64,000 nucleotides of DNA from NCBI GenBank assembly GCA_963793265.1, contig CAWBZI010000002.1:192001-256000 (forward strand), written 5' to 3'. Below are positions 18,117 through 45,653 of the stretch, one piece after another (position 1 is the first letter of the stretch; every line of letters begins with the position of its first letter). The notes beneath the pieces were generated by a model. It saw only the letters and a program-made list of their open reading frames with translations. It searched no databases and had not been told where the DNA came from. This stretch comes from an uncultured cyanobacterium (GTDB taxonomy: Bacteria > Cyanobacteriota > Cyanobacteriia > Phormidesmidales > Phormidesmidaceae). A program made the position numbers and the translations under genes.

Positions 18117-18123
18117 AAATTTT

Positions 18124-24597: not shown

Positions 24598-25305
24598 GTG
24601 CCTTCTCCTGATATTGCCTACCAGCCGCAACCTGACTCAATCACCAGCAGCCCGGCCTTTTACAGTAGCCTGGTGGTCGAGCATATTGTTGCTAAAAGCA
24701 AAACTGCCGCCTTTGAGAACTGGTATCACACGCTAGCGCAAGCAGCAGCCCGCCATCAGGGCTTTGTTCGATCTGATAAATGCCCGCCTTTGGACTGCGC
24801 GGACGACGTTACTAAGTGGTATACCATTGTTCACTTTGACTCTCCTCAGCATCTGGATGCCTGGATCGGGTCTGAAGAACGTCAGAAAATTTTAAGGCTC
24901 GGACAAAAGTTTATGAGAGCCTATCGATTCAAGTCGTTTACAACAGGCTTGGAAGGATGGTTTTCGCAGCAATCTGCTAGCAGTGAACAGTCTGGCCTCG
25001 GCCCGCCCGCCTGGAAGCAAATTCTATCCGTTGTGTTTGGCCTGTATCCGATTGTGATGCTCAGGCTGAAGCTATTTCCGATGACGGGCATTATTGGCAC
25101 CTGGTCACCTGCGGGCGAGATGCTGCTAACCACGCTAGTGACCTCTTCTATTTTAGGCGTGGTTGTGATGCCGATGGTCACACGAATACTGGGCTTTTGG
25201 CTATATCCAGCCTATCGCCGCTCTGCGGTAAAAACTGACGCTTTGGGTTTAGCTATTATTCTCTTAGGACTGCTTTTTATGACCGCTATATTCGATAGAA
25301 TTTAA
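24598..25305 (+). CDS. ABM-like domain plus transmembrane protein
   Basis: IVHFDSPQHLDAWIGSEER; TGLEGWF; PPAWKQ; TM helices. Confidence 0.8.
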   Translation: MPSPDIAYQPQPDSITSSPAFYSSLVVEHIVAKSKTAAFENWYHTLAQAAARHQGFVRSDKCPPLDCADDVTKWYTIVHFDSPQHLDAWIGSEERQKILRLGQKFMRAYRFKSFTTGLEGWFSQQSASSEQSGLGPPAWKQILSVVFGLYPIVMLRLKLFPMTGIIGTWSPAGEMLLTTLVTSSILGVVVMPMVTRILGFWLYPAYRRSAVKTDALGLAIILLGLLFMTAIFDRI

Positions 25306-26130
25306 GACGTTTAGTGAGAGCTGGCCTAGAAAAAAACGTAGCTGCTGCTGAGTTTGCCAAATGTAGTCTGTTGGATTCCAAAGGCTTTGTAAGCCAAAGT
25401 CGATAAGCTGGGCCGGGACAAGGCGATCGCGTCGTTCTGCCAGCATCATTCGCTCTAGTATCCAAGGGTCGCGAGAATATTCTGGATGACCTGAAAACAC
25501 CAGAATGTGACTACCTAGCATCCAACCTAAGTGTTCGGTGACGCCGCTTGTGCCTAAAGAAACAGCACCCGGTGGCAGTCGAGTCACGCCATCGTTGTGA
25601 TGAACCTGAATGTCGTAGGCATCACGCTCCGTATGAAAATATTCCCGAGCAGCTTTCGTAAGACGAATAGTCACGACAGAAAGTTCGGTGCCGGGTGGGT
25701 TGGGCTCCACCTTGCCGCCTAGTGCCTGCGCTACGATTTGCGGTGCGAAGGAAAAACCTGAGAGCGGAATTTTTTGCTTGTGATAGTCTCTGATGACTTC
25801 ACATAGGCGCAATATCCAGTCGTCTGTGTCGTACGCGCCGCTAGCAGAGCCTGAGATAACAACGCCGTCTAAGCCGTTGAGTTCTGTGGGTGTGGGATAG
25901 TGAAATTTGCGCGGCTCATATTTGATTAGCTCGACATGACTGAGCGCAACGCCGCCTAAATCTGTTGGATCGCTTTGCTGGCAAACCTCTGTAAAGAGCT
26001 GCTGGTGCATATCGTAGAAACCGTCAGGGTAGCGCTCTAACAGCTCGGGAGCCCACCAGCGTAGGTCATCGGTGCCAACGTCAAAGCTGGCGAGGCGAAG
26101 GCTTTTAGAAATAGGCAGTTTAGAGGGCAT
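25264..26130 (-). CDS. Class I glutamine amidotransferase-like (gamma-glutamyl hydrolase-like) protein with Ser at the nucleophile position
   Basis: GVVISGS..AYD..WI; GFSFAPQ..AQALGG; HPE. Confidence 0.82.
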   Translation of the reverse strand: MPSKLPISKSLRLASFDVGTDDLRWWAPELLERYPDGFYDMHQQLFTEVCQQSDPTDLGGVALSHVELIKYEPRKFHYPTPTELNGLDGVVISGSASGAYDTDDWILRLCEVIRDYHKQKIPLSGFSFAPQIVAQALGGKVEPNPPGTELSVVTIRLTKAAREYFHTERDAYDIQVHHNDGVTRLPPGAVSLGTSGVTEHLGWMLGSHILVFSGHPEYSRDPWILERMMLAERRDRLVPAQLIDFGLQSLWNPTDYIWQTQQQLRFFLGQLSLNVLNSIEYSGHKKQS

Positions 26131-26141
26131 AGTTGCAGTTC

Positions 26142-27044
26142 TTACAGCGCTAAAGCATCCTGACAATAGTCTTCTAAGAACGGCGTACGGTAGCCGTTTT
26201 GCTGGCTCCACAGAATAGGGTAGAAACTTTCGTGTAGTTCCAACGTATCCATCAGGCGATAGCGGTCAAAGATATAGCCGTTGCCGTTACCGAATGTTCT
26301 TTTTTGAGGCTTGTATTGAGCTTCGCCTGCTAGCGTTGTGATAGAAAGACTTTGCCTGGTTTTGGTATCACTCAGATTACGGTCTGAGCCATGCCACAGG
26401 TCACCGTGCAGGAAAACAGCGCTGCCGTTTGGAACTGTCAAAGAGAGAATTTCTGGTTTTGCAATGCCTGCTTCGTCTGCTGCTTGCCAGAGGGGGGCGC
26501 GGTAGTCTTCTTCGGGCGCGTGGAGAAAGCGAGCCTTTTCTGCTTTGAGACTGTGGGGAGCGCGGGGCCACTGATGAGAGCCCGCAGCCACCTCCAAGGG
26601 ACTGGTGTCGAGGGTAGCGTGGCTGAGGGCGATCCAACAGGTTGTGGAGACTGGTGGGTCAATGGCCTGAACGTAGGCGTTGTTGCGGTGAAAATATAGC
26701 TCGGGGGCGTTGGGTGGTTTGGCCCAGAAGGTGTCTAGGCCGTAGCGGGCGCTGGCTTGGCCCATAAGGGTGGCGTTAAGGCGGGCGATCGCACTCGAAA
26801 GCGTAAAGCCAGCCAGGGTGCGATCACATCGCCAGAGCCCTGTCATTTGTCGGGTGGCATTCGGCTGGCTAAGGCCGGGGCGACCATACCATTCATCGGG
26901 ATAAATGCCGGTTTCAAACTGGGTGTGAAATAGGCGATCGCACCGCTCAATAATCAGTGAAACCTGTTCTTCATTCAGCAGATTATCAACAACAAGATAG
27001 CCCTGCTTATGGAAGATCTTCTTCTGTTCAGCAGTGATCTTCAT
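26142..27044 (-). CDS. PhyH-family Fe(II)/2OG dioxygenase paralog 1 (HxN variant)
   Basis: FETGIYPDEW; KPP..FHRN; CWIAL; LHGDLWHGS. Confidence 0.85.
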   Translation of the reverse strand: MKITAEQKKIFHKQGYLVVDNLLNEEQVSLIIERCDRLFHTQFETGIYPDEWYGRPGLSQPNATRQMTGLWRCDRTLAGFTLSSAIARLNATLMGQASARYGLDTFWAKPPNAPELYFHRNNAYVQAIDPPVSTTCWIALSHATLDTSPLEVAAGSHQWPRAPHSLKAEKARFLHAPEEDYRAPLWQAADEAGIAKPEILSLTVPNGSAVFLHGDLWHGSDRNLSDTKTRQSLSITTLAGEAQYKPQKRTFGNGNGYIFDRYRLMDTLELHESFYPILWSQQNGYRTPFLEDYCQDALAL

Positions 27045-27931
27045 AGGTCACGATCTAAGAACGGCGTACGATAGCCGTCTTCGCGCCAAACAATCGGGAA
27101 AAAGCTCTCGTCCATGGTGTCGTCGCCATGGCGGCGGTATTTAGCCGCGATGTAGCCGCCGGGAATGTAGGAACCTGCTGATTGAAACTTAGACTCGGCA
27201 GGCACATGAATAATCACCAAACTGCGGCGCACAACGTTTGCGATGTTTTGCCCTGAACCGTGCCAGATGTTGCCATGATGAAAAACGCAGCTTCCGGGAG
27301 AAAGCGTCATCTGCACAACTTCTGGACTTTTAGCGCCCGCCTGCTCGGCAGCAACTTCCATTTGAGAAAGGTAGCTTTTATCTTTATTATGAAACTCTGC
27401 GACGGCTCCTGATCTGGGCCAGGTGTGCGAGCCCGGTACATACTCAATCGTGCTAGCGCCCGGAAAAGCGTTGCTCAAAGCTACCCAGCAGGTCGTTGTT
27501 TCACCAACGGGCGTATGGGCGTTAATGTACATAGAGTCTTGATGCAGCGTAGTTTCTTTGGCATTGTGAGGCTTTTGCCACAGGCCATCGGTGAGCAGCC
27601 TAGCGCCTGACCAGCCTTCTAGAGTCGCGGCGATTTGGCCTGCTTTTTGAGACATCACCATGGCGGCTAGGGTGCGATCACATCGCCATACGCCCGTCAT
27701 TTGCCCGGCCACTTCCGAGCACCCCATATGCGGATTCCAGTGCCACTCATCAGGATAAACGCCCGTCTCAAACTCTCCTGCATACAGCAGATCGAATCGT
27801 TTCAAAAGACTTTCTACTTGCTCGGGTGAGAACAGATTTTCTACTACCAAAAAACCATCTTTTTGAAACTGCGCGATTTGTTCACGAGTCACCAGTGAGG
27901 GCTGTTTCGACAGTAGCGTATGAGTAGACAT
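27041..27931 (-). CDS. PhyH-family Fe(II)/2OG dioxygenase paralog 2 (canonical)
   Basis: HQD; PGSH; FHHGNIWHGSGQN..RRS. Confidence 0.9.
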   Translation of the reverse strand: MSTHTLLSKQPSLVTREQIAQFQKDGFLVVENLFSPEQVESLLKRFDLLYAGEFETGVYPDEWHWNPHMGCSEVAGQMTGVWRCDRTLAAMVMSQKAGQIAATLEGWSGARLLTDGLWQKPHNAKETTLHQDSMYINAHTPVGETTTCWVALSNAFPGASTIEYVPGSHTWPRSGAVAEFHNKDKSYLSQMEVAAEQAGAKSPEVVQMTLSPGSCVFHHGNIWHGSGQNIANVVRRSLVIIHVPAESKFQSAGSYIPGGYIAAKYRRHGDDTMDESFFPIVWREDGYRTPFLDRDL

Positions 27932-27958
27932 CGGATTTTATCTCTTTTATCAAAGTTA

Positions 27959-28429
27959 CTAATAATCGCGCGACCTAGCTTTTCGCGACAGTTGCTTTTT
28001 GTTTATCCGACGACCGCGCCTTTTCGCCTGCGCCTTAGAACGACCTAAAGGCGATAATCCCGCGCTCACTAGCCCTAACAGACCAAAGGGAACCGCCCTT
28101 CTCGAAGCCCCAAGCATATCCGCCTGAGCCGTCTTTTCTGGCCTTTTATCCATACGGGCTGACGGCTTCAAATCAGCCGCAACCAGAGAGAGCAGCCCAA
28201 TAACAATAAACGAACTCAGCCGATCCAGCGATTTATTCATCGTAGAAGGATGAGAATGAATGGTGTAGGTAGAGGCAATAAACCAAATAAATATGCCGAC
28301 AGCGACCAGCAGCGCAATGTTGTTAATAATCGGCGTACTGGCAAAGGTGTAAATGGCTCCTTCCGTTGGCCCGTCAGCGGCGGTATTGAACGCCTCTATG
28401 GTTGAAAATGGACTCGACATAAATTCCAC
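27959..28429 (-). CDS. Small membrane protein downstream of amt
   Basis: GAIYTFA + TM helices, basic tail; AGAGG RBS. Confidence 0.7.
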   Translation of the reverse strand: MEFMSSPFSTIEAFNTAADGPTEGAIYTFASTPIINNIALLVAVGIFIWFIASTYTIHSHPSTMNKSLDRLSSFIVIGLLSLVAADLKPSARMDKRPEKTAQADMLGASRRAVPFGLLGLVSAGLSPLGRSKAQAKRRGRRINKKQLSRKARSRDY

Positions 28430-28483
28430 CTCTTTGCTTGTCTTGTTTGGAGATTGGTCTGTTTCGTAGGTTGTTGCGTCGGA

Positions 28484-28506
28484 GGGCGTAAGCCTTACGC
28501 CCCTAC
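28484..28506. repeat. REP-like hairpin
   Basis: GGGCGTAAG-C-CTTACGCCCCTAC. Confidence 0.5.
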
Positions 28507-28518
28507 GGGTGGACGCGA

Positions 28519-29919
28519 TTATATTTGTGGAGCACTTACCTGTGGAACGGGCATTGCAGGCGCAGGTGCACGACCATTCTCTTCAGGAACAAGCGGATAT
28601 TCTGGATACCCTTGCAAGCCGTATTCAGAGAGATCTAGCCCGCCGATCTCTTCTGCTGCCGATACTCTCAGCATTCCGAGCTTTTTGAGCACAAAGCTCA
28701 CGCCGTATCCCGGAATAAAGCCCAACAGAACCGTACACACAAGCGTACCGACTAGCTGCCCAACAAAGCCCGTGAGGGGAATGCCGTCACCCTGCGGATA
28801 GCCCGAAGCCATGACACCCACCGCCATCGCGCCAATCACGCCGCAGTATCCATGTACCGCAAATGCACCTACCGCGTCGTCAATACCTGCTTTTTCAACC
28901 GCATTGCCAACAAAGGGCATGGTGTAAGCACCAATAAAAGCAATTAAAATAACAATTGCGGGGCTGTACAGGTCTAGCCCTGCGCCCACTGAGATAATGC
29001 CAGCCAGACCACCCGAGATTGTGTAGAAAGGATCGGCTTTAGAAGAGATATAAGCGCCCACGATGCCAGAGCACAGAGCCAGCGTTGTATTAACCCCCAC
29101 AGAAGCCAGCGTCATCGGCGTTCCATAGATCGTAATTTCCCCCGTTTGACCCGGCACGAATATTACACAAGCTGCTAAGAAGGCATAAAAGCCAACAAAA
29201 ATCAGCATCAGGCCCACCATGGTAAGTGGCAGGTTGTGAGGCAAAATCGCTCGCCCTCTGCCCTGAGCATCAAACTTACCAATGCGTGGCCCTAAGTTAA
29301 TCAGCACCCCTAGCGCGAAGAATCCAGCGACGCCATGCAGCACCGCCGAGCAGCCGAAGTCATGATAGCCAAACTGTGTGAGAAACCAGCCGTAAGGGTT
29401 CCATCCCCAGGCAGCGGCAACCACCCAGGTAAACGAGCCCAGCACCACTGCCAAAATTGCATAGGCACCCACTTTTATTCGCTCTATAACCGCACCAGAG
29501 AGAATAGAGGCAGTCGTCATCGCAAACAGAGCGAATGCAAACCAGAAAACGCCTGTAAGATTGTCGGAAACGTTCGCACCTAGCGCTGGTGACCAGGGAT
29601 AAGAGGCTTGAACCAACCCTAACACCTCGCCAACCGTGCCTTCAGCGTTAGGATCAGTCCATGGCCCAACAATCCCGCCCGTGAGCGGGAATAGTGGAAA
29701 AGCGTTATACACCCACCAGCCAAAGAAGAAGAAGGTAAGGCCCACAATTGAGAGGGTTAGCAGGTTTTTGACCATGGTGGCTAGCACGTTTTTGGCGCGA
29801 GAAGCACCGCCCTCGTAAGCCAAAAAGCCCACGTGAATGAGCAACATAAATACGGAAGCCCAGTAGTAGTAGGATTCCGAGACGAAAGTAGCTAGAAATT
29901 CTTGTGATTCGGGAGTCAT
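28519..29919 (-). CDS. amt: Ammonium/methylammonium transporter (Amt family, divergent)
   Basis: GAVIER; HDFGCSAVLH; LGPRIGKF; DDAVGAFAVHG (twin His kept). Confidence 0.92.
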   Translation of the reverse strand: MTPESQEFLATFVSESYYYWASVFMLLIHVGFLAYEGGASRAKNVLATMVKNLLTLSIVGLTFFFFGWWVYNAFPLFPLTGGIVGPWTDPNAEGTVGEVLGLVQASYPWSPALGANVSDNLTGVFWFAFALFAMTTASILSGAVIERIKVGAYAILAVVLGSFTWVVAAAWGWNPYGWFLTQFGYHDFGCSAVLHGVAGFFALGVLINLGPRIGKFDAQGRGRAILPHNLPLTMVGLMLIFVGFYAFLAACVIFVPGQTGEITIYGTPMTLASVGVNTTLALCSGIVGAYISSKADPFYTISGGLAGIISVGAGLDLYSPAIVILIAFIGAYTMPFVGNAVEKAGIDDAVGAFAVHGYCGVIGAMAVGVMASGYPQGDGIPLTGFVGQLVGTLVCTVLLGFIPGYGVSFVLKKLGMLRVSAAEEIGGLDLSEYGLQGYPEYPLVPEENGRAPAPAMPVPQVSAPQI

Positions 29920-30000
29920 AAATGGGCTCCGATAGTTTGAGAGAAATCTTTGTTGGCTAAAGCATTAGCCAGAGTGTTGGTAAGAACCGCTCTGGCAGAA

Positions 30001-30056
30001 CTTGTTATATCAAGAGTATGCAACGGGCAAAACATCCAAGCTGTAGTGAACAATAC
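30001..30056 (-). promoter_or_regulatory. NtcA box (30043-30056)-N22-CATACT plus HutC-type operator CTTGTTATATCAAG (30001-30014)
   Basis: Read directly upstream of amt. Confidence 0.72.
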
Positions 30057-30113
30057 TGAAAGGTGATTAATGTCACAATTTGATATGCCATTGAATATGT
30101 CGATGAAAATTGC

Positions 30114-30596
30114 TTACGGCATGGACACCTGTCTTTTTAGACTATCAATGTTTGTCATTGAAACATGCAGTTCCACAACGGGTTTATGCTCAATCATATG
30201 CCGCCAAATTAGGATCGGAATGGTGTCTAGGCAGGCTGGGACTGCCTGGTGATTGGGTAGGGCAGTAAGTCGATGAGGTGCTCTGACGGTAGCCTGCTGT
30301 ATGAGGGCGGGAAGCTGGTCGTTAGGTAGAGTTATTGACTTTAGCCATGGATATTGCTTGACCCATACACAGCGCTGTAGTGGGATAACGTGCTGATGGA
30401 GTGAGCCCGCGTAGCGAATGCGAAAGTTGCGATCGCACAGCCTTAAAACCGCACAGTCTTGCCCCTGTAGCACTGTCTCAACAGACTGAAACGGCGACAG
30501 ATATCCCACCGCCTCGCCAAACAACAGCCGAGCTACGTCCAGTCCTTCTGCTCCTGCCATATCCCAAAGCTTACTCACGCTTTTTTTACCTCGCAT
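30114..30596 (-). CDS. Hypothetical protein, possibly SoxG/GcvT-fold accessory subunit
   Basis: Overlaps the Tdm-like gene end; LWDMAG...VLRL pattern; weak resemblance only. Confidence 0.55.
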   Translation of the reverse strand: MRGKKSVSKLWDMAGAEGLDVARLLFGEAVGYLSPFQSVETVLQGQDCAVLRLCDRNFRIRYAGSLHQHVIPLQRCVWVKQYPWLKSITLPNDQLPALIQQATVRAPHRLTALPNHQAVPACLDTIPILIWRHMIEHKPVVELHVSMTNIDSLKRQVSMP

Positions 30597-34442: not shown

Positions 34443-34479
34443 CGTAGTGAGTCTCCTGAATACTTTTTCAGCTTTTCTT

Positions 34480-35931: not shown

Positions 35932-35975
35932 AGAAAAGTTTGTAGGTGAACGTTACAGGTGAAAAGAGATAGAAA

Positions 35976-36878
35976 CTATCCAACAGAAACCGCTGCCGTC
36001 TCCGCCAGCGGATCGGCGCAGTAATCAGCCAAATGAGGACTCCGGTAGCCATCCTTTTGCCAGAGCACCGGGAAAAAGCTCTCATCCATCTCGTTACTGC
36101 CGAGCCGCTTGTAGCGCCCGTAGATATATCCGGCCTGATGCGTTGGATGAAACTGTGAATTCGACGGAATCGTGTGCAAGCCAATGCTGTGAAACGTGCC
36201 TTCTGTGCGCGTTGTTTTACACAGTCCATGCCAGGTGCGCCCGTGATGAAAGGCGCAGCCGCCTGCGGGCACTTCTACCACCACCAGTTCAGGCTGCTCT
36301 ACCCCGGCATTTTCTGCCGCCTGAAGCATTGCCCAGCGGTAGTCTTTAGTCGGCGCATGAAACTCTCCTTCTACGGCTGCTAGGGGCCACTTATGAGATC
36401 CTTTCACGTACACCAGCGTTCCATCGGCGGCAGTGGCATCGTCTAGCGCGACCCAGCAGGTCATCATTTGCGCGGGATTCAAATAGTCTATGTAGGCTCC
36501 GTCTTGATGCATGGCGATCGCCTTCGCCCCAGGCGGCTTCATCCACAGGCTGTCCTGACCAATTCTCGCCCCTTGCCAACCTGCCAAGGTCGCGGTTAGT
36601 CGGCCAATCTCGGCCGAGAGTACCAGGCTAGCAATCGTGCGATCGCACTTCCAGGCATTACACATCTCTCTGGTGACATCTGGCAGGCTCAGTCCGGGCC
36701 GCCAGTACCACTCGTCGGGATAAATGCCCGTTTCAAACTCTCCATGAAACAGCGGCTCCATTCGAGCCGCGAGCCGCTTGGCGAAATCGGGCGGCACAAA
36801 GTTTTCGACAATTAAGAAGCCGTCTGCTTGAAACTGTTTAATCTGCGCTTGCGTAAGCGTAACGGGCTGATAGCTCAT
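35976..36878 (-). CDS. PhyH-family dioxygenase paralog 3 (HQD kept, 2OG-binding Arg apparently replaced)
   Basis: MSYQPV start; HQD; FHHGRTWHGLCKT..GTFHS. Confidence 0.88.
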   Translation of the reverse strand: MSYQPVTLTQAQIKQFQADGFLIVENFVPPDFAKRLAARMEPLFHGEFETGIYPDEWYWRPGLSLPDVTREMCNAWKCDRTIASLVLSAEIGRLTATLAGWQGARIGQDSLWMKPPGAKAIAMHQDGAYIDYLNPAQMMTCWVALDDATAADGTLVYVKGSHKWPLAAVEGEFHAPTKDYRWAMLQAAENAGVEQPELVVVEVPAGGCAFHHGRTWHGLCKTTRTEGTFHSIGLHTIPSNSQFHPTHQAGYIYGRYKRLGSNEMDESFFPVLWQKDGYRSPHLADYCADPLAETAAVSVG

Positions 36879-36930
36879 TGACTGATAGCCGATTTGAAAA
36901 TATTTGACAAAAAAGAATAAACAAACTCTA

Positions 36931-36977
36931 CTTGTCATAATAAGTTTCTTTTGAGAAGAAACGGTGCGCTTCGCTAC
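36931..36977. promoter_or_regulatory. Operator CTTGTCATAATAAG (36931-36944) and imperfect NtcA box (36964-36977) in divergent promoter
   Basis: Matches the repeated operator; the minus strand reads GTA-N8-CAC-N21-TATTAT. Confidence 0.6.
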
Positions 36978-37027
36978 ACTTTCACAAAACACATGACAAA
37001 ACATCTGGGAGAATCAGGGAAACAGCC

Positions 37028-37771
37028 ATGAAATCTGAAGAAACATTAACTGCGCAATTAACCATGCAGCCCGGCCATCTAAACATTGTGGCCAGTGACT
37101 TTGATGCTCGTCCGATGAGCTACATTGATGCAGAGGGCTATCGGACAGGGTATGAGGTAGAGCTGGCAAGGGTGGTGTGCGATCGCCTCAATCTCAAACC
37201 CGTCTGGCACAATCTCCCAATGAAAGACTTTTACACCAGCTTAGATCCCAATCAAAACAAGCAGTACGACATTGTTTGGTTCAATCAGGCGATTACCCCC
37301 GCCCGGCAGCAGCAGGTTGACTTTACTCAACCCTACGGCCTGTTTGACGAAGCCGTACTGGTCAAGCAGCCAAGCTCTGTCACTGCGCCTGAAGACCTGG
37401 CAAACCTGCGGGTTGGTGGACTTGCAGGCAGTACAAATATTGAGCTAGTAGACGGCTTTTCTGGTGCCAAAGCAGTGCCTTACCTGGGCAGCGATAAGGT
37501 ATTACCTGAAATGCTATCTGCCCTACGAGCAGGCGAGATCGATGCTCTAATTGATGATGAGCTGGTGCTGATTGTTGCTGCTGAAGAAGATCCTAAATTA
37601 CGTTTGGCATTTAGTTTGCCGACCAAAGCACCTTTTGCTATTGGAGTATCTAAAGCTCAGCCCATGCTGCAAGAGAAGCTAGACGCTACACTCTCTGCGG
37701 TGATCGCAGACGGCACGCTAGGGCAGCTTTGGGAAAAGTGGATTCCCTGGAAACCGTTTCCGTTCTCGTAG
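37028..37771 (+). CDS. Family-3 solute-binding protein without signal peptide
   Basis: PMSY..GYEVELA; ITPARQQQVDFTQPY; G+STN; no hydrophobic N-terminus. Confidence 0.82.
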   Translation: MKSEETLTAQLTMQPGHLNIVASDFDARPMSYIDAEGYRTGYEVELARVVCDRLNLKPVWHNLPMKDFYTSLDPNQNKQYDIVWFNQAITPARQQQVDFTQPYGLFDEAVLVKQPSSVTAPEDLANLRVGGLAGSTNIELVDGFSGAKAVPYLGSDKVLPEMLSALRAGEIDALIDDELVLIVAAEEDPKLRLAFSLPTKAPFAIGVSKAQPMLQEKLDATLSAVIADGTLGQLWEKWIPWKPFPFS

Positions 37772-37809
37772 CTCTTGATACAAACTTGTCATAACAGGTT
37801 AGCTTTACT
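37768..37809 (+). promoter_or_regulatory. NtcA box GTAGCTCTTGATAC (37768-37781), operator CTTGTCATAACAGG (37785-37798), TTTACT at 22 nt
   Basis: Read directly. Confidence 0.72.
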
Positions 37810-37870
37810 TAAAAGGAAATAGGTCTGTTTCACATTCGCCTTTGCAAATTACCTCGGAGACTTTTAAAAA

Positions 37871-39394
37871 GTGACTGGAACTCTTATCAAAAGCAGCGCT
37901 TCAAAAAACTCTTCAAAAAATGACACAACAGACATTGAAGCCTACGTGAGTGCCGAAGGCCGCGCTGAAAAAGTCAGGCAGGTACGCGCCAAAATTGATG
38001 AGCTAGGCGTTCAATATATCTACTATCAGTTCATTTCTATTACGGGGAAAATTGTTGGGAAGGGTGTTCCTGCTGACCATTGGGAAACGACCGCGAAAGG
38101 TGGCATTCAGCTTGTGTACGGTGCCACGGTAAACCTAGCAATTGACCGCCAGCAGCAGTATTTGGGCTACGGGCCTGAGTCTGCTGAGCTAGTGGCCATC
38201 CCCGATCCAGACACCTTTTGTCAGTTGCCCTGGGATAAGCGGGTGGCAAGAGTTTATTGCGTGTGCTTTCGCAACCGTGAAGAAGAAGAGAATCCGGGTG
38301 CTTTTCTCACGTCAGACTGTCGCGGCAATCTCATGCGTATCCATGCAGATTTTCAACAGAAGCACGGGCTTCAGCTACGCCACGGCTGTGAGCCAGAAAT
38401 GATGTGGCTTAAAAAAGGGCCAGATGGTAAGCCGGATGGCGGTGTGACTAAGCCGAACTGCTACCACATCGATCAGTTTGAGGAGCTGCGGCCTGTGTTT
38501 TTGCGCGTGATTGAGTACTCACGGGCAATGGGCTTAGATATGATTCAAGGCGATCATGAGGACGCGCCAGGGCAGCTAGAGCTGAACTTTATGTATGATG
38601 ATGCGCTGCGGACGTGCGATCGCCTTACCACCTACCGCCAAATTTGCGCTCAGGTTGCCCGTGAATTCAATCTCATTGCCTGCTTCATGTCCAAGCCATT
38701 CCTGGGCGTTTCTGCCTCGGGCTGTCATCACAATCTCTCTCTTTGGCGCGGTGGCGATACCGCCGTCAAGTCATTTGGTATGGAGAGTTTACTTGGGCTC
38801 GAAGGCAACTACACCTACAGTCAGGGTGGAGAAAACACCTTTATGCCTGTTAAGGGAGAGTCGCCGCGCATACCGGGGCCAGTGGGGCTGCACTGCATTG
38901 GCGGCGTGATTGCTCACTTGGGCGCACTGACGGCGGTGGGCTGCTCTACCGTGAATTCTTACCGGCGGCTGTGGGATGCGGGTTTCTGGGCTCCGGTCTA
39001 TTCGGACTGGGGCTATCAAAATCGTACCTGCGGGCTCCGGGTTTCAGCGCCCGGAAGATTTGAATATAGAGCGGTGGATTCTATGGTGAATCCTTATTTG
39101 ATGGCGGGTGCGATGCTGAAGGCGTTTGATGACGGATTGAGTAACCAGTTAGATCCGGGTAAGCCTGAGCAGCGCAACATTTACGAGGCGATGGAGGCGG
39201 GCAAGCAAACGAAAAAGCTGCCGATGTCGTTGGGAGAAGCGTTAGATCGGCTGGCTGAGGACGAGGTAATCAAGTCAGCGATGCCGGGTGAAATGTATCG
39301 GTTGTTTGAAGAATATAAGAGAGATGAGTGGATTCGATTTTTGGCGACGACTAGCAACTGGGATGCTGAGAACTATATGCACTGCTTGCCGTGA
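37871..39394 (+). CDS. Glutamine synthetase-like gamma-glutamyl ligase
   Basis: GCEPE; DHEDAPGQLE; SGCHHN; NRT..RV; FEYRAVD; GTG start after GGAG. Confidence 0.9.
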   Translation: MTGTLIKSSASKNSSKNDTTDIEAYVSAEGRAEKVRQVRAKIDELGVQYIYYQFISITGKIVGKGVPADHWETTAKGGIQLVYGATVNLAIDRQQQYLGYGPESAELVAIPDPDTFCQLPWDKRVARVYCVCFRNREEEENPGAFLTSDCRGNLMRIHADFQQKHGLQLRHGCEPEMMWLKKGPDGKPDGGVTKPNCYHIDQFEELRPVFLRVIEYSRAMGLDMIQGDHEDAPGQLELNFMYDDALRTCDRLTTYRQICAQVAREFNLIACFMSKPFLGVSASGCHHNLSLWRGGDTAVKSFGMESLLGLEGNYTYSQGGENTFMPVKGESPRIPGPVGLHCIGGVIAHLGALTAVGCSTVNSYRRLWDAGFWAPVYSDWGYQNRTCGLRVSAPGRFEYRAVDSMVNPYLMAGAMLKAFDDGLSNQLDPGKPEQRNIYEAMEAGKQTKKLPMSLGEALDRLAEDEVIKSAMPGEMYRLFEEYKRDEWIRFLATTSNWDAENYMHCLP

Positions 39395-39441
39395 GGGATT
39401 TGCATGTCATGTTTCAAACGCACCTACTCAAACGCACAGCA

Positions 39442-40212
39442 CTAAGACTGTTTCTTTTTGTCATTGAGTGCGTTTTCTGCTCGCTCAATTGTTAAAGAAT
39501 AGCAAAAGCGGTCGGCTCTAGAAATAGTCTCACCGTGCAAAACGGGCGTTTCACGTTCCGTATAAGCTGTGTATCTGTAAACGATTAGCGGATGCCCTAA
39601 AGGCACTTCTAAATGGTTGCTCATTTCGTAGTCAGCGTGAGTGCATTCAATGGTGGCTTCTATTTTCTCAATAGGAACGGCGTTTGCTTCTAGGGTAGGA
39701 AACGTCATTTGGCGTTTGAGCTGTGTTCCTAACTTTTGCCCTAGCCCCAGCAAAATATAGGTCACGTCAACGGCTCCGGCTGCGCCATCCATCCGCAGCA
39801 GTTTTTTTTGCAGATATACGCTCGGGTATGTGCCCGAAGCTGAGGTCGAATCTTTGCTGAGCTGCAAGGCCACTCGAACGGGCTTAGGCGGACGAACTTT
39901 TTTGAACGTGAGATTATCAAACGAAAGCTTTATTCCTTTGCTGGCGATATCTTGCTCTAAAAAAACCAGCGGGCTAGAAAGGGAGTAGGCGGTTTTGACT
40001 TGCGGGGTGACGAAGACGCCTTTTCCCTGCTGCGATCGCGCTAACCCCTGACTGACCAAATTCGTCACGGCCTGCCTCACCGTAATCCGGCTCACCCCAA
40101 ACGTTTTCATAAGCTGATGCTCGCTAGGCAGCTTTTCACCCGGCAAATACTCACCGATTTCTATCTGATGACGGAGCTTTTCAGAGATACTGATATGAAG
40201 AGGAACGCTCAT
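39442..40212 (-). CDS. GntR-family regulator (HutC/UTRA type)
   Basis: KLPSEHQL..FGVSRITVRQA..QGKGVFV; UTRA ending SRADRF. Confidence 0.92.
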   Translation of the reverse strand: MSVPLHISISEKLRHQIEIGEYLPGEKLPSEHQLMKTFGVSRITVRQAVTNLVSQGLARSQQGKGVFVTPQVKTAYSLSSPLVFLEQDIASKGIKLSFDNLTFKKVRPPKPVRVALQLSKDSTSASGTYPSVYLQKKLLRMDGAAGAVDVTYILLGLGQKLGTQLKRQMTFPTLEANAVPIEKIEATIECTHADYEMSNHLEVPLGHPLIVYRYTAYTERETPVLHGETISRADRFCYSLTIERAENALNDKKKQS

Positions 40213-40277
40213 AAGTTGGGTCAAAAGAAACACAAAAAAAGTGGACTTGGCGGCAGTATAGGCTTGCTACGTCAGCT

Positions 40278-40323
40278 CTTGTTATACCAGCTTGGGTATG
40301 TTAACTTTACTTGTTATAACAAG
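40278..40323. promoter_or_regulatory. Two operators: CTTGTTATACCAGC (40278) and perfect palindrome CTTGTTATAACAAG (40310-40323)
   Basis: In the HutC-GntR / desaturase divergent promoter. Confidence 0.72.
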
Positions 40324-40349
40324 CTATCGTTCAGAGGCACTACGCTTAT

Positions 40350-41330
40350 ATGACCGCTAATATCCTTGGTAAAACAGCCTCACCAGCCACGCCACCTAAT
40401 GCTTCACAGGTTAATCTACCTGCGGCAAACCCACGTCAGCTCTTGAGCACTCAGCAGCTATCATCCCTCAATCAGCGCTCAGACATGATTGGAATGCTGC
40501 GGTTCGTCTCTCACCTATCCGTTCTGTGCGTCAGTGGATATGTGTGGGGCACGGCTACGGGCATATGGAGCGTCATAGGGCTAGTCGTCTACGGGGCTAG
40601 TTTAGCGCTGATGTTTTGCGCGGTGCATGAATGTGTGCACAGAACGGCTTTTTCTCATACCCGAGTAAATGACGCGATCGCCTGGATAGCAGGCTTACTA
40701 TCATTTTACAACAGTACGTTTTACCGGCGCTATCACAAGTGGCATCATCGCTACACGCGCGTTGCTGGGAAAGATCCTGAGCTAACTGACTTAGAGCCTA
40801 GCAATATAGGAGAGTACCTTTGGGTATTAAGCGGATTGCCCTGGTGGAAAGGAAAAATAGAAGGCCATATAAAAGCAGCGCTCGGTCAGCTTGACGAGTG
40901 CTTTTACCTGCCGGAAAGTTCGCATTCGTCGGTTATTCGCTCTACCCGATTACAGCTTGCGGCCTATGGCGCGATCGCTCTAACATCCGCCGCCCTCGGC
41001 CACCCCTGGTTTATCGCCACCTACTGGCTATTGCCGCTAGCCGTCGGCCAGCCTATCCTCCGGTTTGTGCTCCTAGCCGAACATACCGGATGCAGCTACG
41101 GTGATAATTTCCTAACCAATACCCGCACGACGCTTACCTTCTGGCCGTTGCGTTTGCTCATGTGGAACATGCCCTATCACGCAGAGCATCACCTTTATCC
41201 GTCTATCCCCTTCCACTCACTGCCCGCCGCTCATGAGCAGTTAAGAGAGAAATTCTCTCATGTCGATCAAGGATATATGCAGGTGAATAGAGATATTGTA
41301 GACGCGTTTCAACTATCTGAGCCCGTATAA
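40350..41330 (+). CDS. Membrane diiron desaturase/hydroxylase (MocD-like)
   Basis: His boxes HECVH, HKWHH, EH, HAEHH; DPE. Confidence 0.87.
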   Translation: MTANILGKTASPATPPNASQVNLPAANPRQLLSTQQLSSLNQRSDMIGMLRFVSHLSVLCVSGYVWGTATGIWSVIGLVVYGASLALMFCAVHECVHRTAFSHTRVNDAIAWIAGLLSFYNSTFYRRYHKWHHRYTRVAGKDPELTDLEPSNIGEYLWVLSGLPWWKGKIEGHIKAALGQLDECFYLPESSHSSVIRSTRLQLAAYGAIALTSAALGHPWFIATYWLLPLAVGQPILRFVLLAEHTGCSYGDNFLTNTRTTLTFWPLRLLMWNMPYHAEHHLYPSIPFHSLPAAHEQLREKFSHVDQGYMQVNRDIVDAFQLSEPV

Positions 41331-41331
41331 G

Positions 41332-42345
41332 ATGAGCCGTCCTAGCAGCTTTGTGCTTAAAGATTTTCCTTTGCAGTGCGGCGTTGTGCTGCCGGAGGCT
41401 CAAGTTGTTTATCAAACATATGGAGCGTTGAATAGCGATCGCAGCAATGCCGTTCTTTACCCGACTTCCTATGGCGCTCAGCACAGCGATGTAGACTGGC
41501 TAGTGCGCCCTGACGGCATTTTAGATCCGACAGATTGGTTTGTGATTATGCCTAATATGTTTGGCAATGGGCTTTCAACTTCTCCAAGCAACTGTGCGAT
41601 CGCGAAAAAGGCAGGCTTCTACTTTACGCACTACGACAACGTTCGCGCTCAGTGCGAACTGTTGAACAGTTTAGGTATCGAACAGCTAGCGCTAGTCTAC
41701 GGATGGTCAATGGGCGCACAGCAAGGATATCACTGGGGAGCTTTGTATCCTGAGCGGACTCAGAGAATCGCCGCAATTTGTGGGACTGCAAAAACAACCG
41801 ATCACAACCGCATTTTTCTCTATAGCCTGCGAGCGGCGCTACAGGGCGATCCTGCCTGGAATGGCGAACGGTTTGAGAGCGTCCCTGATCGCGGCTTTCA
41901 TACCTTCACTCAAATTTACGCTAGCTGGGCAGCTTCTCAGGCATACTACCGGGCAAAGCCTTATTTGGCATGGGGCTATGCGTCTTTAGAAGACTATTTG
42001 ATGCGGAGTTGGGAGGCTGGCTATCGCAGGCGCGATCCGCACGACTTGCTGGCTATGATTGAAACCTGGCTGCACTGTGACATTGGAGACAATCCAGTAT
42101 ATGAAGGAGACTATAAGAAAGCGCTGGCTTCTATCACAGCGAAAACGCTAGTCATGCCTGCTACGACAGATTTGTACTTTACGCCAGAAGATTGCGAGAT
42201 TGAAGCTAGTGAAATTCCAAAGAGCGAGTATCGCCCGATTCCGTCTATCTGGGGTCATCGGGCGGGAAATCCCTATCAGAACGCTGAGGATGAGCTGTTT
42301 ATTAAACAGGCCGTTGCAGCGCTGCTGAGTACTGAGAAACACTAA
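41332..42345 (+). CDS. Alpha/beta hydrolase, homoserine acetyltransferase-like
   Basis: YQTYGALN; GWSMGA nucleophile; TDLYF; WGH. Confidence 0.85.
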   Translation: MSRPSSFVLKDFPLQCGVVLPEAQVVYQTYGALNSDRSNAVLYPTSYGAQHSDVDWLVRPDGILDPTDWFVIMPNMFGNGLSTSPSNCAIAKKAGFYFTHYDNVRAQCELLNSLGIEQLALVYGWSMGAQQGYHWGALYPERTQRIAAICGTAKTTDHNRIFLYSLRAALQGDPAWNGERFESVPDRGFHTFTQIYASWAASQAYYRAKPYLAWGYASLEDYLMRSWEAGYRRRDPHDLLAMIETWLHCDIGDNPVYEGDYKKALASITAKTLVMPATTDLYFTPEDCEIEASEIPKSEYRPIPSIWGHRAGNPYQNAEDELFIKQAVAALLSTEKH

Positions 42346-43667
42346 ACATCTACATACTGGTTTAGCTCCCAATCGGTGATTTGAGAACAGAATGCACTCC
42401 ATTCTTTGTGCTTGAACTCGAAGAAAGTTTTAGCGCCTAGTTCGCCTAGCATGTTCATTAACAGCTCATTTTGCTTGAGTGCCGAGAGCGCCTCGAACAA
42501 ATTAGTCGGTAGGGTTGCTAAATTTGGAAACTCTGCGCCTCGGGCGAACAGGTTTTCGTCAATGCGATCGCCCGGAGAAATCTCATGACTCATCCCATCC
42601 AATCCCGCCGCCAGTATCCCCGCGAGCGCCAAATACATATTCGCTGAACCATCAATAAGGCGACACTCAAACCGGCCTGCTTCAGGAATTCGCAGCATGT
42701 GAGAACGGTTGTTGCCGCCGTACGAAATATAGCGCGGCGTCCAGGTGCTGCCCGAGGTGGTTGCACTCGCTCCCAAGCGGCGATAGGAATTGACGGTAGG
42801 TGCAAACAGCGCCGTTAGACCCTTTGCATGTTTGAGCACACCGCCTAGAAAGTGATAGCCTACCGGAGAAAGCCCGCCCGCATCGGCATCTTGTTCAAAG
42901 CTGTTGATATCGCCTTGCCATAGGCTGTTGTGCACGTGTCCGCCGCTGCCGGTAAGCGTGCTAAAAGGCTTTGGCATAAAGGTTGCTGTTAGGCCGCGTT
43001 TTTCGGCCAGCGTTTTGACCATGTACTTAAAAAATACGTGGTGATCGCACGTCGTCTTTGCATCGCTATAGCCCCAGTTCAGCTCAAACTGTCCGTTGGC
43101 ATCTTCATGATCGCACTGGTAGGGCTCCCAGCCGAGCTGTTCCATATAGCCGACAATCGTGGAGATTAGATCGAACTGGCGCATGAGGTTAAGCTGGTCG
43201 TAGCAGGGGCGCTCGGCGGTGTCTCTTTCGTCAGCGATCGCATAGCCACCTTCTGTTTTCTTTAGCAAAAAGAACTCTGCCTCTACCCCAGCTTTGTAGG
43301 TGTAGCCTAGCTGCTCGCACTGGTCTATTACCCGATTCAAAATCATCCGGGGCGCAGCCGGAAAAGGCTCGCCCTCAAAGTACACATCGCTCGCCACCCA
43401 GCCTACTGTAGGCTCCCACGGCAGTTGAATAAGAGAACTCACATCAGGAATCGCGGCAATTTCCGCTGCATCTGGCCCCAGCCCTAAGTTAGAAGCAAAT
43501 GAGCTGAAGAAAGCGCCACTTTTCTCAACGGATGCAATTTTAGTCGCAGGTACGAGCTTTGCTCTGGTTCCGCCCAGCAAATCGGTGTAAGACACCAAGA
43601 AGAACTTGATACCTAGCTTTTCGGCTTGCTCCGTTAGGCTTTTAGATTTTGCTAGCGTTTTGACCAT
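42342..43667 (-). CDS. glnT: Type III glutamate-ammonia ligase (GlnT / GmaS-like)
   Basis: SYTDLLG..RAKLVP; KAGVEAEFF; PCYDQ; YQCDHEDANGQFE; NNRSHM. Confidence 0.85.
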   Translation of the reverse strand: MVKTLAKSKSLTEQAEKLGIKFFLVSYTDLLGGTRAKLVPATKIASVEKSGAFFSSFASNLGLGPDAAEIAAIPDVSSLIQLPWEPTVGWVASDVYFEGEPFPAAPRMILNRVIDQCEQLGYTYKAGVEAEFFLLKKTEGGYAIADERDTAERPCYDQLNLMRQFDLISTIVGYMEQLGWEPYQCDHEDANGQFELNWGYSDAKTTCDHHVFFKYMVKTLAEKRGLTATFMPKPFSTLTGSGGHVHNSLWQGDINSFEQDADAGGLSPVGYHFLGGVLKHAKGLTALFAPTVNSYRRLGASATTSGSTWTPRYISYGGNNRSHMLRIPEAGRFECRLIDGSANMYLALAGILAAGLDGMSHEISPGDRIDENLFARGAEFPNLATLPTNLFEALSALKQNELLMNMLGELGAKTFFEFKHKEWSAFCSQITDWELNQYVDV

Positions 43668-43708
43668 AGCTTCTACCGTAGTGGCTACCTTTATTCGCTT
43701 CTCCCACC

Positions 43709-43750
43709 AGTAAAACAGCCTGACCTCATAGGATTTGTAGTATCTGCTAC
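43709..43750 (-). promoter_or_regulatory. NtcA box (43737-43750)-N22-TTTACT for glnT
   Basis: GTAGTATCTGCTAC; same spacing and hexamer as the promoter at 37768. Confidence 0.72.
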
Positions 43751-45622: not shown

Positions 45623-45653
45623 AGGTGATTTTAATAGTTTTAAAGCGGCATAA

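Follow-up and report, generated by a model that had tools for sequence, protein, structure and literature searches.

A candidate nitrogen-scavenging gene cluster for methylated amines in a marine filamentous cyanobacterium

We analyzed a stretch of 64,000 nucleotides (the window; contig CAWBZI010000002.1 of assembly GCA_963793265.1, positions 192,001 to 256,000) from the genome of an uncultured marine filamentous cyanobacterium of the Phormidesmidaceae (5.68 Mb on 7 contigs, 98.97% complete). Window positions 25264-43750 encode a cluster that includes a short homologue of trimethylamine N-oxide (TMAO) demethylase (Tdm), two glutamate-amine ligases, PhyH-family dioxygenases and an Amt-family transporter. 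We consider it modestly probable that the cluster serves, as a regulon, to scavenge nitrogen from methylated amines (TMAO, probably also trimethylamine, dimethylamine and methylamine), with steps predicted to proceed via the ligase GSL507 and the dioxygenase PhyH_C. A preliminary description, made from the sequence alone, had listed the protein families of this interval. Pfam and NCBIfam scans of 20 open reading frames (ORFs) between 23.7 and 47.3 kb recovered every family named there, along with ORFs 27959-28429 and 30114-30596, an SBP_bac_3 gene (37028-37771) and a GntR/UTRA gene (39442-40233) that it had not mentioned. The minus-strand genes are transcribed in the order PhyH_C, ACAD-like, copper amine oxidase, DUF1989-GcvT demethylase, unk160, a gap, Amt, unk156, PhyH_B, PhyH_A and GATase1-like. 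The genes of the cluster are:

25264-26211, minus strand: GATase1-like, a divergent class-I glutamine-amidotransferase-like protein (Pfam GATase 24.2 bits, cut-off 22.8; NCBIfam weak)
26142-27044, minus strand: PhyH_A, a paralogue of the PhyH family whose metal site is degenerate (Pfam PhyH 79 bits)
27041-27931, minus strand: PhyH_B, a PhyH-family Fe(II)/2-oxoglutarate dioxygenase (Pfam PhyH 97 bits)
27959-28429, minus strand: unk156, a small protein that combines hydrophobic segments with a basic tail; its gene comes straight after that of Amt
28519-29919, minus strand: divergent Amt-family transporter (Pfam Ammonium_transp 213 bits; TIGR00836 211 bits, cut-off 343)
30114-30596, minus strand: unk160, a small GcvT/SoxG-like half-fold protein
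30575-32461, minus strand: short TMAO-demethylase homologue with DUF1989 core, GcvT domain and C-terminal barrel (likely start Met 32461; longest ORF to 32557)
32487-34496, minus strand: copper (TPQ) primary-amine oxidase (NF008559 1000.9 bits, cut-off 651)
34480-35931, minus strand: ACAD-fold flavoprotein (Pfam ACAD N, M and C domains)
35976-36878, minus strand: PhyH_C, a dioxygenase of the PhyH family whose gene heads the minus-strand operon (Pfam PhyH 85 bits; likely start 36878, longest ORF to 37004)
37028-37771, plus strand: SBP3, an SBP_bac_3-fold protein (Pfam SBP_bac_3 93 bits)
37871-39394, plus strand: GSL507, a GmaS-like glutamate-amine ligase of 507 aa that has an insertion of ~45 residues (Pfam Gln-synt_C 254 bits)
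39442-40233, minus strand: GntR/HutC-type (UTRA) regulator (Pfam GntR and UTRA)
40350-41330, plus strand: membrane di-iron FA_desaturase-family oxygenase (Pfam FA_desaturase 138.5 bits)
41332-42345, plus strand: MetX-like alpha/beta hydrolase or acyltransferase (NF005757 464 bits, cut-off 332)
42342-43667, minus strand: GlnT, an orthologue-grade gamma-glutamylmethylamide synthetase (GmaS; TIGR03105 577.7 bits, cut-off 469.6)

A genome-collection scan with the demethylase yielded 64 related loci, 62 of them titled as cyanobacteria (Phormidesmis, Nodosilinea, Leptolyngbya, Elainellaceae and others) and two as 'uncultured bacterium'. Genes at these loci were counted by tblastn (E <= 1e-10, at least half the query length), and the counts are lower bounds because contig ends cut many loci. 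The demethylase was counted in 62 loci, unk160 in 58, Amt in 42, unk156 (adjoining Amt) in 38, the copper amine oxidase in 36, PhyH_C and GSL507 in 29 each, SBP3 (between PhyH_C and GSL507) in 28, the ACAD-like gene in 27, PhyH_B and PhyH_A orthologues in 8 each (after overlap resolution) and the GATase-like gene in 7. Gene order is conserved, with three layouts: the full window-like set, demethylase-unk160-Amt-unk156 only (Nodosilinea-type), and SBP3-demethylase-unk160-Tmm-ligase. The search for synteny across cyanobacteria that had been proposed as a check thus gave a strong result, with conserved order across the 64 loci. In Nodosilinea nodulosa PCC 7104 the ligase, SBP3, PhyH_C, ACAD-like and GlnT genes form a second locus ~165 kb from the demethylase.

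The demethylase homologue matches the TMAO demethylase model NF053776 with 791.9 bits over model positions 134-762 of 763, below the equivalog cut-off of 1100 bits, and a search of the source genome with this model returned the same 791.9-bit result. Pfam recognizes GCV_T (215.5 bits) and GCV_T_C (53.2 bits) domains, and query residues 52-655 align with residues 177-787 of the Paracoccus TMAO demethylase chain in PDB 9q59 (E 3.2e-174). Extracts of the paper on the cryo-EM structures of that enzyme (9Q59, 9Q5A and 9Q5L; PMC13619132) report a zinc site formed by C285, C301 and C365, a requirement of D220 and F327 for activity, a role of D367 in holding the product, and aggregation upon deletion of residues 1-150. 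All six of these residues are identical in the window protein. Across 40 cyanobacterial homologues, no variation is seen at the equivalents of D220, C285, C301, C365 and D367; at that of F327, 23 have F and 17 have Y. The two proteins are thus alike in having a DUF1989 core with the three-Cys zinc site, D220, F327 and D367, followed by a GcvT domain (~600 residues align). They differ in that the first ~175 residues of the Paracoccus chain have no counterpart in the window protein, and in that the cyanobacterial gene is paired with one for a 160-aa GcvT-fold protein (unk160).

The short form is characteristic of the homologues: the best 120 in the database are all 582-720 aa, and a 628-aa form that matches the start at 32461 is present in the records. 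The homologue names shown carry no function ('DUF1989 domain-containing protein', 'glycine cleavage protein T', 'aminomethyltransferase'). At 50% clustering the cyanobacterial short form makes up one cluster, the next relative being a 790-aa protein with 45% identity. A 625-aa 'short' Tdm of Pseudomonadota (P0132) was set aside: its 2.8-kb contig encodes only a partial protein, which is no evidence for a short Tdm outside cyanobacteria. Three 12-nt direct repeats (family D7, 32434-32477) extend over the likely start of the demethylase gene (32461) and its first codons, which fits the variable N-terminal lengths among homologues.

Could this protein demethylate some other N-oxide or N-methyl compound, with the cluster serving a quaternary amine or an N-methylated osmolyte? 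The score under the equivalog cut-off, the missing N-terminal domain, the separate 50% cluster at 45% identity to its next relative and a cluster without a TMAO transporter would all fit such a role, and DUF1989 chemistry varies (urea-amidolyase-associated models score 55-90 bits). We consider it improbable, given that the window protein retains the solved enzyme's full set of six substrate, product and zinc residues and that canonical Tmm, whose product is TMAO, lies alongside in six loci. The same active-site conservation, and the presence of canonical Tmm inside the cluster in 6 of the 64 loci, bear out the earlier proposal that the cluster concerns methylated amines.

The unk160 gene follows that of the demethylase in 58 of 62 loci. 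Its product has no Pfam or NCBIfam match, and a PDB sequence search gave chance-level matches only. An AlphaFold2 model (mean pLDDT 94.7, 46-sequence alignment) retrieved with Foldseek the aminomethyltransferase 1yx2 (E 2.5e-8, TMq 0.76) and the sarcosine oxidase gamma chains 1vrq_C and 2gag_C. By hhalign, the unk160 profile matches long Tdm at its GcvT domain (E 7.5e-7, probability 91.8%), and Pfam gave a weak GCV_T contact in 4 of 46 unk160 homologues (best E 0.0096). The idea that unk160 is the split-off N-terminal domain of Tdm was rejected, as the profile aligns to the GcvT domain (columns 459-633) and not to the N-terminal region. Like SoxG of heterotetrameric sarcosine oxidase and N-methylglutamate dehydrogenase, unk160 is a stand-alone half GcvT fold encoded beside a large subunit that bears a GcvT-like domain. 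Unlike SoxG, it does not match the Pfam SoxG model (PF04268), the similarity being in fold only, and its partner is a zinc demethylase where that of SoxG is a flavoprotein. We propose that unk160 is a SoxG-like accessory subunit of the short demethylase, where it may play a stabilising or tetrahydrofolate-site role.

To place the cluster in a phylogenetic context we used 201 evenly drawn cyanobacterial genomes, each at least 90% complete and including the source genome. Occurrence in this sample is:

Demethylase (E <= 1e-100): 26 of 201 genomes
GSL507 (all matches at least 75% identical): 31 of 201 genomes
PhyH_C (E <= 1e-121): 29 of 201 genomes
GlnT (E <= 1e-180): 33 of 201 genomes
Tmm (over cut-off): 9 of 201 genomes
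Copper amine oxidase (E <= 1e-200): 58 of 201 genomes
ACAD-like protein (E <= 1e-120): 18 of 201 genomes

All 26 demethylase genomes have both GSL507 and a PhyH_C-grade match. GSL507 is also found in 9/9 Tmm genomes and 18/18 ACAD-like genomes, and occurs without the demethylase in only five (G077, G103, G124, G166 and G185). GlnT is present in 21 and the copper amine oxidase in 22 of the demethylase genomes. The demethylase is patchy within seven families (e.g., f1 4/16, f10 7/11 and f16 6/16). In 20 further genomes reached via the loci (the handle genomes, which overlap with the 201-genome sample), GSL507 is found every time, at 75-93% identity, even where it lies ~165 kb away.

Canonical Tmm was recognized inside the cluster in six loci (L050, L053, L055, L056, L060 and L065); in L053, for example, a gene flanked by unk160 and the ligase reaches 793.6 bits against a NF058570 cut-off of 675. 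These Tmm-type clusters hold only Amt, unk156, PhyH_C, SBP3, demethylase, unk160, Tmm and ligase. Of the 26 genomes with the demethylase, 17 carry the ACAD-like gene without Tmm, eight carry Tmm without the ACAD-like gene, none has both and one has neither (an assembly of 980 contigs). The handle genomes show the same pattern (ACAD-like 15, Tmm 4, neither 1; none with both full-length). Both states occur within families f1, f10 and f16, which implies at least three switches. In one ACAD-like genome (G007), a 268-aa open frame at C60:706-1395 matches positions 1-230 of the 443 of the Tmm model and may be a decaying tmm.

The ACAD-like protein is probably not an acyl-CoA dehydrogenase: its best NCBIfam match is Rv1679/FadE16 (206 bits, cut-off 600), it scores far below all acyl-CoA dehydrogenase equivalogs, and a manual motif alignment places Gly at what we take to be the MCAD-type catalytic Glu position. 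Its second-nearest Atlas cluster is named 'dibenzothiophene monooxygenase' and the names are otherwise generic for the family, as are those of all PhyH_C Atlas clusters. Replacement of Tmm by the ACAD-like protein in the oxidative entry step, as N-oxygenase or as amine dehydrogenase/oxidase, is a lead from this distribution. The protein could act further downstream instead because its gene is always adjacent to PhyH_C.

Both ligases of the cluster are predicted to be amine ligases and not glutamine synthetases, because they keep GmaS catalytic residues. GlnT is the only protein of the genome over the TIGR03105 cut-off and matches the solved GmaS RhGmaS (7cql) with E 4.7e-150. Taking the catalytic and methylamine-pocket residues of RhGmaS as given in extracts of PMC7948447, a manual reading finds Y147, Y174, Q175, D177, E179, E186, N188, W189, Y191, W300, R312 and K30' all kept in GlnT. 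GSL507 (31% identical to GlnT) scores 296.3 bits with TIGR03105, below the cut-off of 469.6, in a match split in two by the insertion, and its best PDB match is the glutamate-methylamine ligase 9qur (E 2e-54). Of the residues listed in those extracts, it retains D177, E186, R312, Y147, Q175, E179, N188, W300 and K30', with changes in the pocket region (Y174 to Ile, F185 to Leu and W189 to Phe); its flap position holds Trp, not Glu (GmaS-type). The preliminary description had singled out GlnT for assay with the PhyH proteins; the tightly linked ligase is GSL507, as five of the 26 demethylase genomes lack GlnT. GlnT orthologues (83-91% identical) are present in 4/5 relatives searched, each with a neighbouring GATase1 gene and a second GmaS-grade ligase, and in two of these four the regulator, desaturase-like and MetX-like genes are also near, on the contig of the cluster. 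At the genome level, we found no type-I glutamine synthetase (TIGR00653) over the cut-off, the best matches being both cluster ligases and a 734-aa GlnN-type frame (C6:929079-929690); the organism may depend on GlnN alone as glutamine synthetase.

PhyH_C keeps the HxD...H triad in 28/28 sequences. The Arg of the RxS motif, which we take from PhyH/EctD to contact the C5 carboxylate of 2-oxoglutarate, is replaced by Phe in 23/28 and present in 5/28; another basic residue might stand in for it. SBP3, encoded between PhyH_C and GSL507, is probably cytoplasmic because there is no apparent room for a signal peptide upstream of its start. The Amt of the cluster is only 28% identical to the two other Amt proteins of the genome, and its orthologues at the 42 related loci are 71-94% identical. 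It is the proposed importer of ammonium or methylated ammonium ions. The adjoining unk156 has no match in Pfam or NCBIfam, and only chance-level matches in a PDB sequence search.

Two kinds of motif recur at the promoters of these genes. NtcA-type boxes (GTAN8TAC) number 15 in the window against 7.19 expected (15 was reached in 1/100 shuffles), and 9/15 are intergenic by manual reading of the ORF map. A repeat family in the window led us to an operator, the 14-nt palindrome CTTGTNATAACAAG, which with up to 2 mismatches has 9 strand-matches against 1.53 expected (9 was reached in 0/100 shuffles). These correspond to four palindromic sites (30001, 36931, 37785 and 40310), all at cluster promoters, and one unrelated site. 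The sites of interest, none of which is assigned a strand, are:

30001-30014: operator palindrome CTTGTTATATCAAG, Amt promoter
30043-30056: NtcA-type box GTAGTGAACAATAC, upstream of Amt
36931-36944: operator palindrome, divergent PhyH_C / SBP3 promoter region
37768-37781: NtcA-type box GTAGCTCTTGATAC, upstream of GSL507
37785-37798: operator palindrome, immediately downstream of the NtcA box at 37768, before GSL507
40310-40323: perfect operator palindrome CTTGTTATAACAAG, between the regulator and desaturase-like genes
43737-43750: NtcA-type box GTAGTATCTGCTAC, upstream of GlnT

Over the 64 related loci (974 kb), the operator (up to 1 mismatch) has 88 sites, at cluster promoters only: 30 fall in the unk160-Amt gap, 12 in the SBP3-PhyH_C gap (with 8 more scored within an over-long PhyH_C call), 13 ahead of the demethylase, 12 in the ligase-SBP3 gap, 5 in the gap that separates the regulator from the desaturase-like gene, and 8 in contig-edge or variant arrangements of the same genes. 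The NtcA-type box is present in 36/36 unk160-Amt gaps, 18/22 ligase-SBP3 gaps, 3/4 Tmm-ligase gaps and 8/24 SBP3-PhyH_C gaps, compared with 0/57 demethylase-unk160 gaps and a background of 0.20 per kb. The GntR/HutC-type regulator is the candidate repressor for the palindrome because its own divergent promoter carries the operator at 40310. In front of both Amt and the ligase, the NtcA box is closely followed by the operator, an arrangement that would let the repressor block an NtcA-dependent promoter. The NtcA boxes and operator reported earlier are thus shared within the window and conserved in related loci, and the co-regulated block they were taken to mark is predicted from motif evidence.

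We propose the following route. Expression would be controlled by NtcA as activator and by a pathway-specific GntR/HutC-type repressor acting on the shared palindrome. The divergent Amt would import (methyl)ammonium ions, and Tmm, or the ACAD-like protein in genomes without Tmm, would oxidise trimethylamine. The short demethylase, with unk160, would convert TMAO to dimethylamine and methylene-tetrahydrofolate. GSL507 would then gamma-glutamylate dimethylamine and/or methylamine, and PhyH_C would hydroxylate the N-methyl of the resulting gamma-glutamyl amide, with loss of formaldehyde; repeated rounds would yield glutamine. GlnT (forming gamma-glutamylmethylamide) and the copper amine oxidase (converting methylamine to formaldehyde, ammonium and H2O2) would provide parallel entries for methylamine. 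The strongest argument for the GSL507 and PhyH_C steps is that the Tmm-type clusters, with their few genes, must still deliver nitrogen from dimethylamine. The preliminary description had amines first glutamylated and then hydroxylated; that order gains from the divergent operator-bearing promoter region shared by GSL507 and PhyH_C and from their joint presence in 26/26 demethylase genomes, while the mechanism stays conjectural.

In its most specific form, the proposal is that GSL507 makes gamma-glutamyl-(di)methylamide and that PhyH_C strips the N-methyls as formaldehyde, with SBP3 perhaps a carbinolamide lyase or binder, and that together they replace dimethylamine monooxygenase and the N-methylglutamate pathway. 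It further takes the ACAD-like protein to be a non-orthologous replacement of Tmm and the SoxG-like subunit to replace the N-terminal domain of Tdm. We offer this combination tentatively, as possible but doubtful; that SBP3 binds or cleaves an N-hydroxymethyl amide is speculation.

The usual genomic partners of GlnT, mgsABC and mgdABCD, were not encountered in the genome. The genome-wide check for tmm, dmm, mgs and mgd genes that had been suggested found none. For Tmm (NF058570) the best score is 77 bits against the cut-off of 675, and for SoxB/Mgd-type proteins it is 42 bits against 529. GXGXG, sought as a sign of MgsB-type proteins, occurs in the genome only within two ~1560-aa frames of GOGAT size, with no stand-alone GXGXG protein. 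PF11927 (HODM), which we take to be the Dmm alpha subunit, and SoxG (PF04268) had no match in the genome; both are weaker negatives, since control genomes gave none either. An FMO-like gene (C4:158209) was considered as a hidden Tmm and rejected, with 108 bits against 675 and other FMO/BVMO enzymes as nearest structures.

Extracts of PMC5520151 describe the proteobacterial pathway of Ruegeria pomeroyi and Methylocella silvestris as comprising Tmm, Tdm, DmmDABC, GmaS, MgsABC and MgdABCD. As far as those extracts describe it, the cyanobacterial cluster resembles this pathway in its Tdm homologue, orthologue-grade GmaS and Amt, in the Tmm of 6/64 loci, and in the predicted transfer of the first formaldehyde to tetrahydrofolate. 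It differs in that no Dmm (HODM), MgsB-type or SoxB/Mgd-type protein was found in the genome and that a short Tdm has a separate SoxG-like partner. In place of the missing proteins the cluster encodes a second GmaS-like ligase, dioxygenases of the PhyH family, a copper amine oxidase, an ACAD-fold flavoprotein and a probably cytoplasmic protein with an SBP fold, and control is predicted to be by NtcA and a GntR/HutC-type repressor.

Glutamylation of amines has parallels elsewhere. In the isopropylamine (Ipu) route, glutamylation is followed by alkyl hydroxylation and hydrolysis. Gamma-glutamylation is also described in the Puu route for putrescine, in Streptomyces GlnA2/3/4, and in aniline/1-naphthylamine degradation, where dioxygenation follows. 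The cluster is like the Puu, Ipu and aniline routes in pairing a GS-like ligase that would form a gamma-glutamyl amide with a neighbouring oxygenase as candidate for that amide and a GATase1-like gene. It is unlike them in that the oxygenase is of the PhyH Fe(II) family rather than a P450, Rieske or flavin enzyme, and that the GATase-like protein has Ser at the nucleophile position. The proposed N-demethylation leaves glutamine, so that no deglutamylation would be needed.

The copper amine oxidase scores well over the cut-off of NF008559 and carries N-Y-E-Y and H-x-H, presumably the TPQ and copper-ligand motifs. It is apparently cytoplasmic. It belongs to the same family as the methylamine oxidase and AGAO-type enzymes of Arthrobacter and shares their TPQ and copper-ligand motifs, and it could oxidise methylamine directly; its cyanobacterial homologues occur in 58/201 genomes, most of them without the cluster.

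The oxidase brings up another explanation, in which the region is a mosaic of independent nitrogen-scavenging modules: the Tdm homologue acting on TMAO, the oxidase on methylamine (giving formaldehyde, ammonium and H2O2) and the ACAD-like protein perhaps on dimethylamine, with ligase, PhyH and GATase proteins handling other amines (ethanolamine, amino alcohols, polyamines or ethylamine) by Puu/Ipu-like logic. The orthologue-grade score of the oxidase (1000.9 against 651 bits), with its TPQ motif, is in keeping with this, as is the substrate range of copper amine oxidases, which according to extracts of PMC3382800 extends from methylamine to polypeptides. The oxidase and ACAD-like genes stand between PhyH_C and the demethylase in 27-36 of the 64 loci. 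Their absence from Tmm-type clusters, which have the ligase, PhyH_C and SBP3, argues the other way, as another dimethylamine route is then needed. GSL507 and PhyH_C also accompany the demethylase in 26/26 genomes, while the oxidase is missing from 4 and common without it.

Other parts of the region would suit a mosaic as well. Seven loci have a separate GS-like, PhyH_B, PhyH_A and GATase-like module, in which an extra GS-like gene (~30% identity to GlnT) precedes PhyH_B-PhyH_A-GATase-like. One relative has Fe-alcohol and aldehyde dehydrogenases beside GlnT, as in amino-alcohol routes, and genes of purine and pyrimidine catabolism make the whole window a nitrogen-scavenging neighbourhood. A single operator is found at the promoters of demethylase, Amt, PhyH_C, SBP3 and ligase, which speaks against independent modules, and overall we think the mosaic somewhat unlikely. 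In the relative just mentioned (L070:6638-9345), the aldehyde dehydrogenase and Fe-alcohol dehydrogenase genes adjoin the GlnT orthologue, with GATase1 and a second GmaS-grade ligase on its other side, an arrangement that suggests an amino-alcohol branch in some relatives.

Several points weigh against a methylated-amine regulon with GSL507 and PhyH_C at its core. The cluster has no TMAO-type transporter; binding proteins of the OpuAC family are encoded elsewhere in the genome, none in the cluster. The genome of the window lacks Tmm and thus has no canonical entry for trimethylamine, and the demethylase, besides having no N-terminal domain, falls short of the NCBIfam equivalog cut-off. GlnT is missing from 5/26 demethylase genomes, and the copper amine oxidase from 4/26, with 36 genomes having the oxidase and no demethylase. 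The PhyH_C threshold was set after the scores had been seen (weaker matches are mostly tandem PhyH_B/A-type pairs), and related genomes are not independent, so the co-occurrence counts overstate the support. PhyH_C mostly lacks the usual 2-oxoglutarate-binding Arg (23/28), which makes its cosubstrate use uncertain. PhyH_A is without the metal triad, and in the GATase-like protein a Ser occupies the position at which Cys is expected. Finally, in open-access papers and preprints we found no precedent for gamma-glutamylation of a secondary amine or for Fe/2-oxoglutarate N-demethylation of a gamma-glutamyl amide, and no description of a cyanobacterial Tdm cluster, of a GS-like ligase paired with a PhyH enzyme, of gamma-glutamyldimethylamide, or of a demethylase for N5-methylglutamine. 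For cyanobacterial Tdm only an unrelated review and a preprint on Trichodesmium came up, and for gamma-glutamyldimethylamide or dimethylglutamine only unrelated sponge-peptide papers.

Methylated amines are climate-active and form a sizeable part of the dissolved organic nitrogen in the sea; their breakdown is ascribed to heterotrophic bacteria. Cyanobacteria are treated in the literature as lacking a pathway for these compounds; a Trichodesmium preprint states that direct use of trimethylamine would require a pathway not yet known. Of the 201 sampled cyanobacterial genomes, 26 hold a cluster with canonical entry enzymes, a conserved and unexplained ligase/dioxygenase pair and none of the known downstream genes. 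According to the same extracts of Lidbury et al. (PMC5520151) as above, dimethylamine is a genetic bottleneck, many bacteria having Tmm, Tdm and GmaS without DmmDABC. If this cluster's ligase/dioxygenase pair handles dimethylamine and methylamine, phototrophs would gain direct access to methylated-amine nitrogen, there would be a second solution to the dimethylamine step, and Fe-dependent N-demethylation of a gamma-glutamyl amide would be a new reaction type. The entry enzymes and the glutamylate-then-oxidise logic are known; their cyanobacterial combination is plausibly new, as is the reaction. Culturable strains, such as Nodosilinea nodulosa PCC 7104, Leptolyngbya sp. FACHB-60 and Leptothoe sp. 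PORK10 BA2, are among the carriers of these genes, so the idea is directly testable.

The remaining PhyH and GATase-like proteins fit their family assignments less evenly, with motif positions that are our own assumption. PhyH_B has HxD...H and RxS in 9/9 sequences. PhyH_A is probably non-catalytic because the triad Asp is Asn (HxN in 9/9) and the distal His is present in only 5/9; the RxS Arg is kept in 9/9. Thus, all three proteins counted earlier as PhyH dioxygenases belong to the family, with PhyH_A lacking the metal-binding Asp. The assignment of a class I amidotransferase likewise holds at the family level: the protein keeps H-P-E and has G-F-S-F-A where the nucleophile elbow G-x-C-x-G is expected, and this Ser motif is identical in 7/7 orthologues and the window (8/8). 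It therefore departs from the Cys-His-Glu triad of the Puu/Ipu-type class I GATase gamma-glutamyl hydrolases.

The desaturase-like gene belongs to the operator regulon by the site at its promoter. Its best NCBIfam match is weak, to the arginine hydroxylase GntB (47 bits), and the MetX-like gene lies directly after it in related loci too. GS-like ligases, PhyH hydroxylases, membrane di-iron hydroxylases and MetX-like acyltransferases occur in biosynthetic clusters, and the presence of all of these here (GntB is a guanitoxin enzyme) raises the idea that the genes build a natural product on a gamma-glutamyl handle instead of breaking down amines. That is very improbable: the promoters of Amt and of the ligase have conserved NtcA boxes, Amt, Tdm, Tmm and the amine oxidase are catabolic, and the Pfam and NCBIfam scans found no NRPS, PKS or export genes, with nitrogen-salvage genes as neighbours.

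The rest of the window is a nitrogen-salvage neighbourhood, with genes for guanine deaminase, two xanthine/uracil-type permeases, the urate hydroxylase HpxO, hydroxyisourate hydrolase and allantoate amidohydrolase, and with amidase, 8-oxoguanine-deaminase-like, dihydropyrimidinase and ABC transporter genes. The left-flank genes (GntR/FCD 23733-24437 and ORF 24598-25305) and the right-flank amidase and deaminase genes were found in 0/64 related loci (10-kb flanks) and are therefore placed outside the cluster; the amidase adjoins GlnT in one relative. The genes listed from guanine deaminase to allantoate amidohydrolase, together with one for an OprB/SLH porin, form a purine-catabolism block (10468-20620) with NtcA-type boxes at 13554, 14035 and 17708. 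A 141-aa transposase fragment (DDE_Tnp_ISAZ013, 22419-22844) separates it from the amine cluster. Next to GlnT, 43754-49097 encodes the amidase (NtcA-type box at 45855), 8-oxoguanine-deaminase-like and dihydropyrimidinase proteins and a stand-alone allophanate-hydrolase C-terminal domain protein; these neighbours also appear nitrogen-regulated. ORFs 53877-54668, 55728-56753 and 56864-58063 have no Pfam or NCBIfam match, and the last two are preceded by two NtcA-type boxes 17 nt apart (55670 and 55687).

At the ligase end of one related locus (L069:17054-19545) are genes for an O-methyltransferase and for an FMO-like protein (Pfam 210.9 bits), the latter unmatched in NCBIfam at E <= 1e-20; a second flavin monooxygenase-like gene lies at L069:2210-3940. 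DNA runs containing the stretch are labelled as macroalgae, sediment and marine metagenomes, and no RNA run was among those listed. At least half of its sampled words occur in 3 runs from 2 studies, and the best-matching run may be the source sample.

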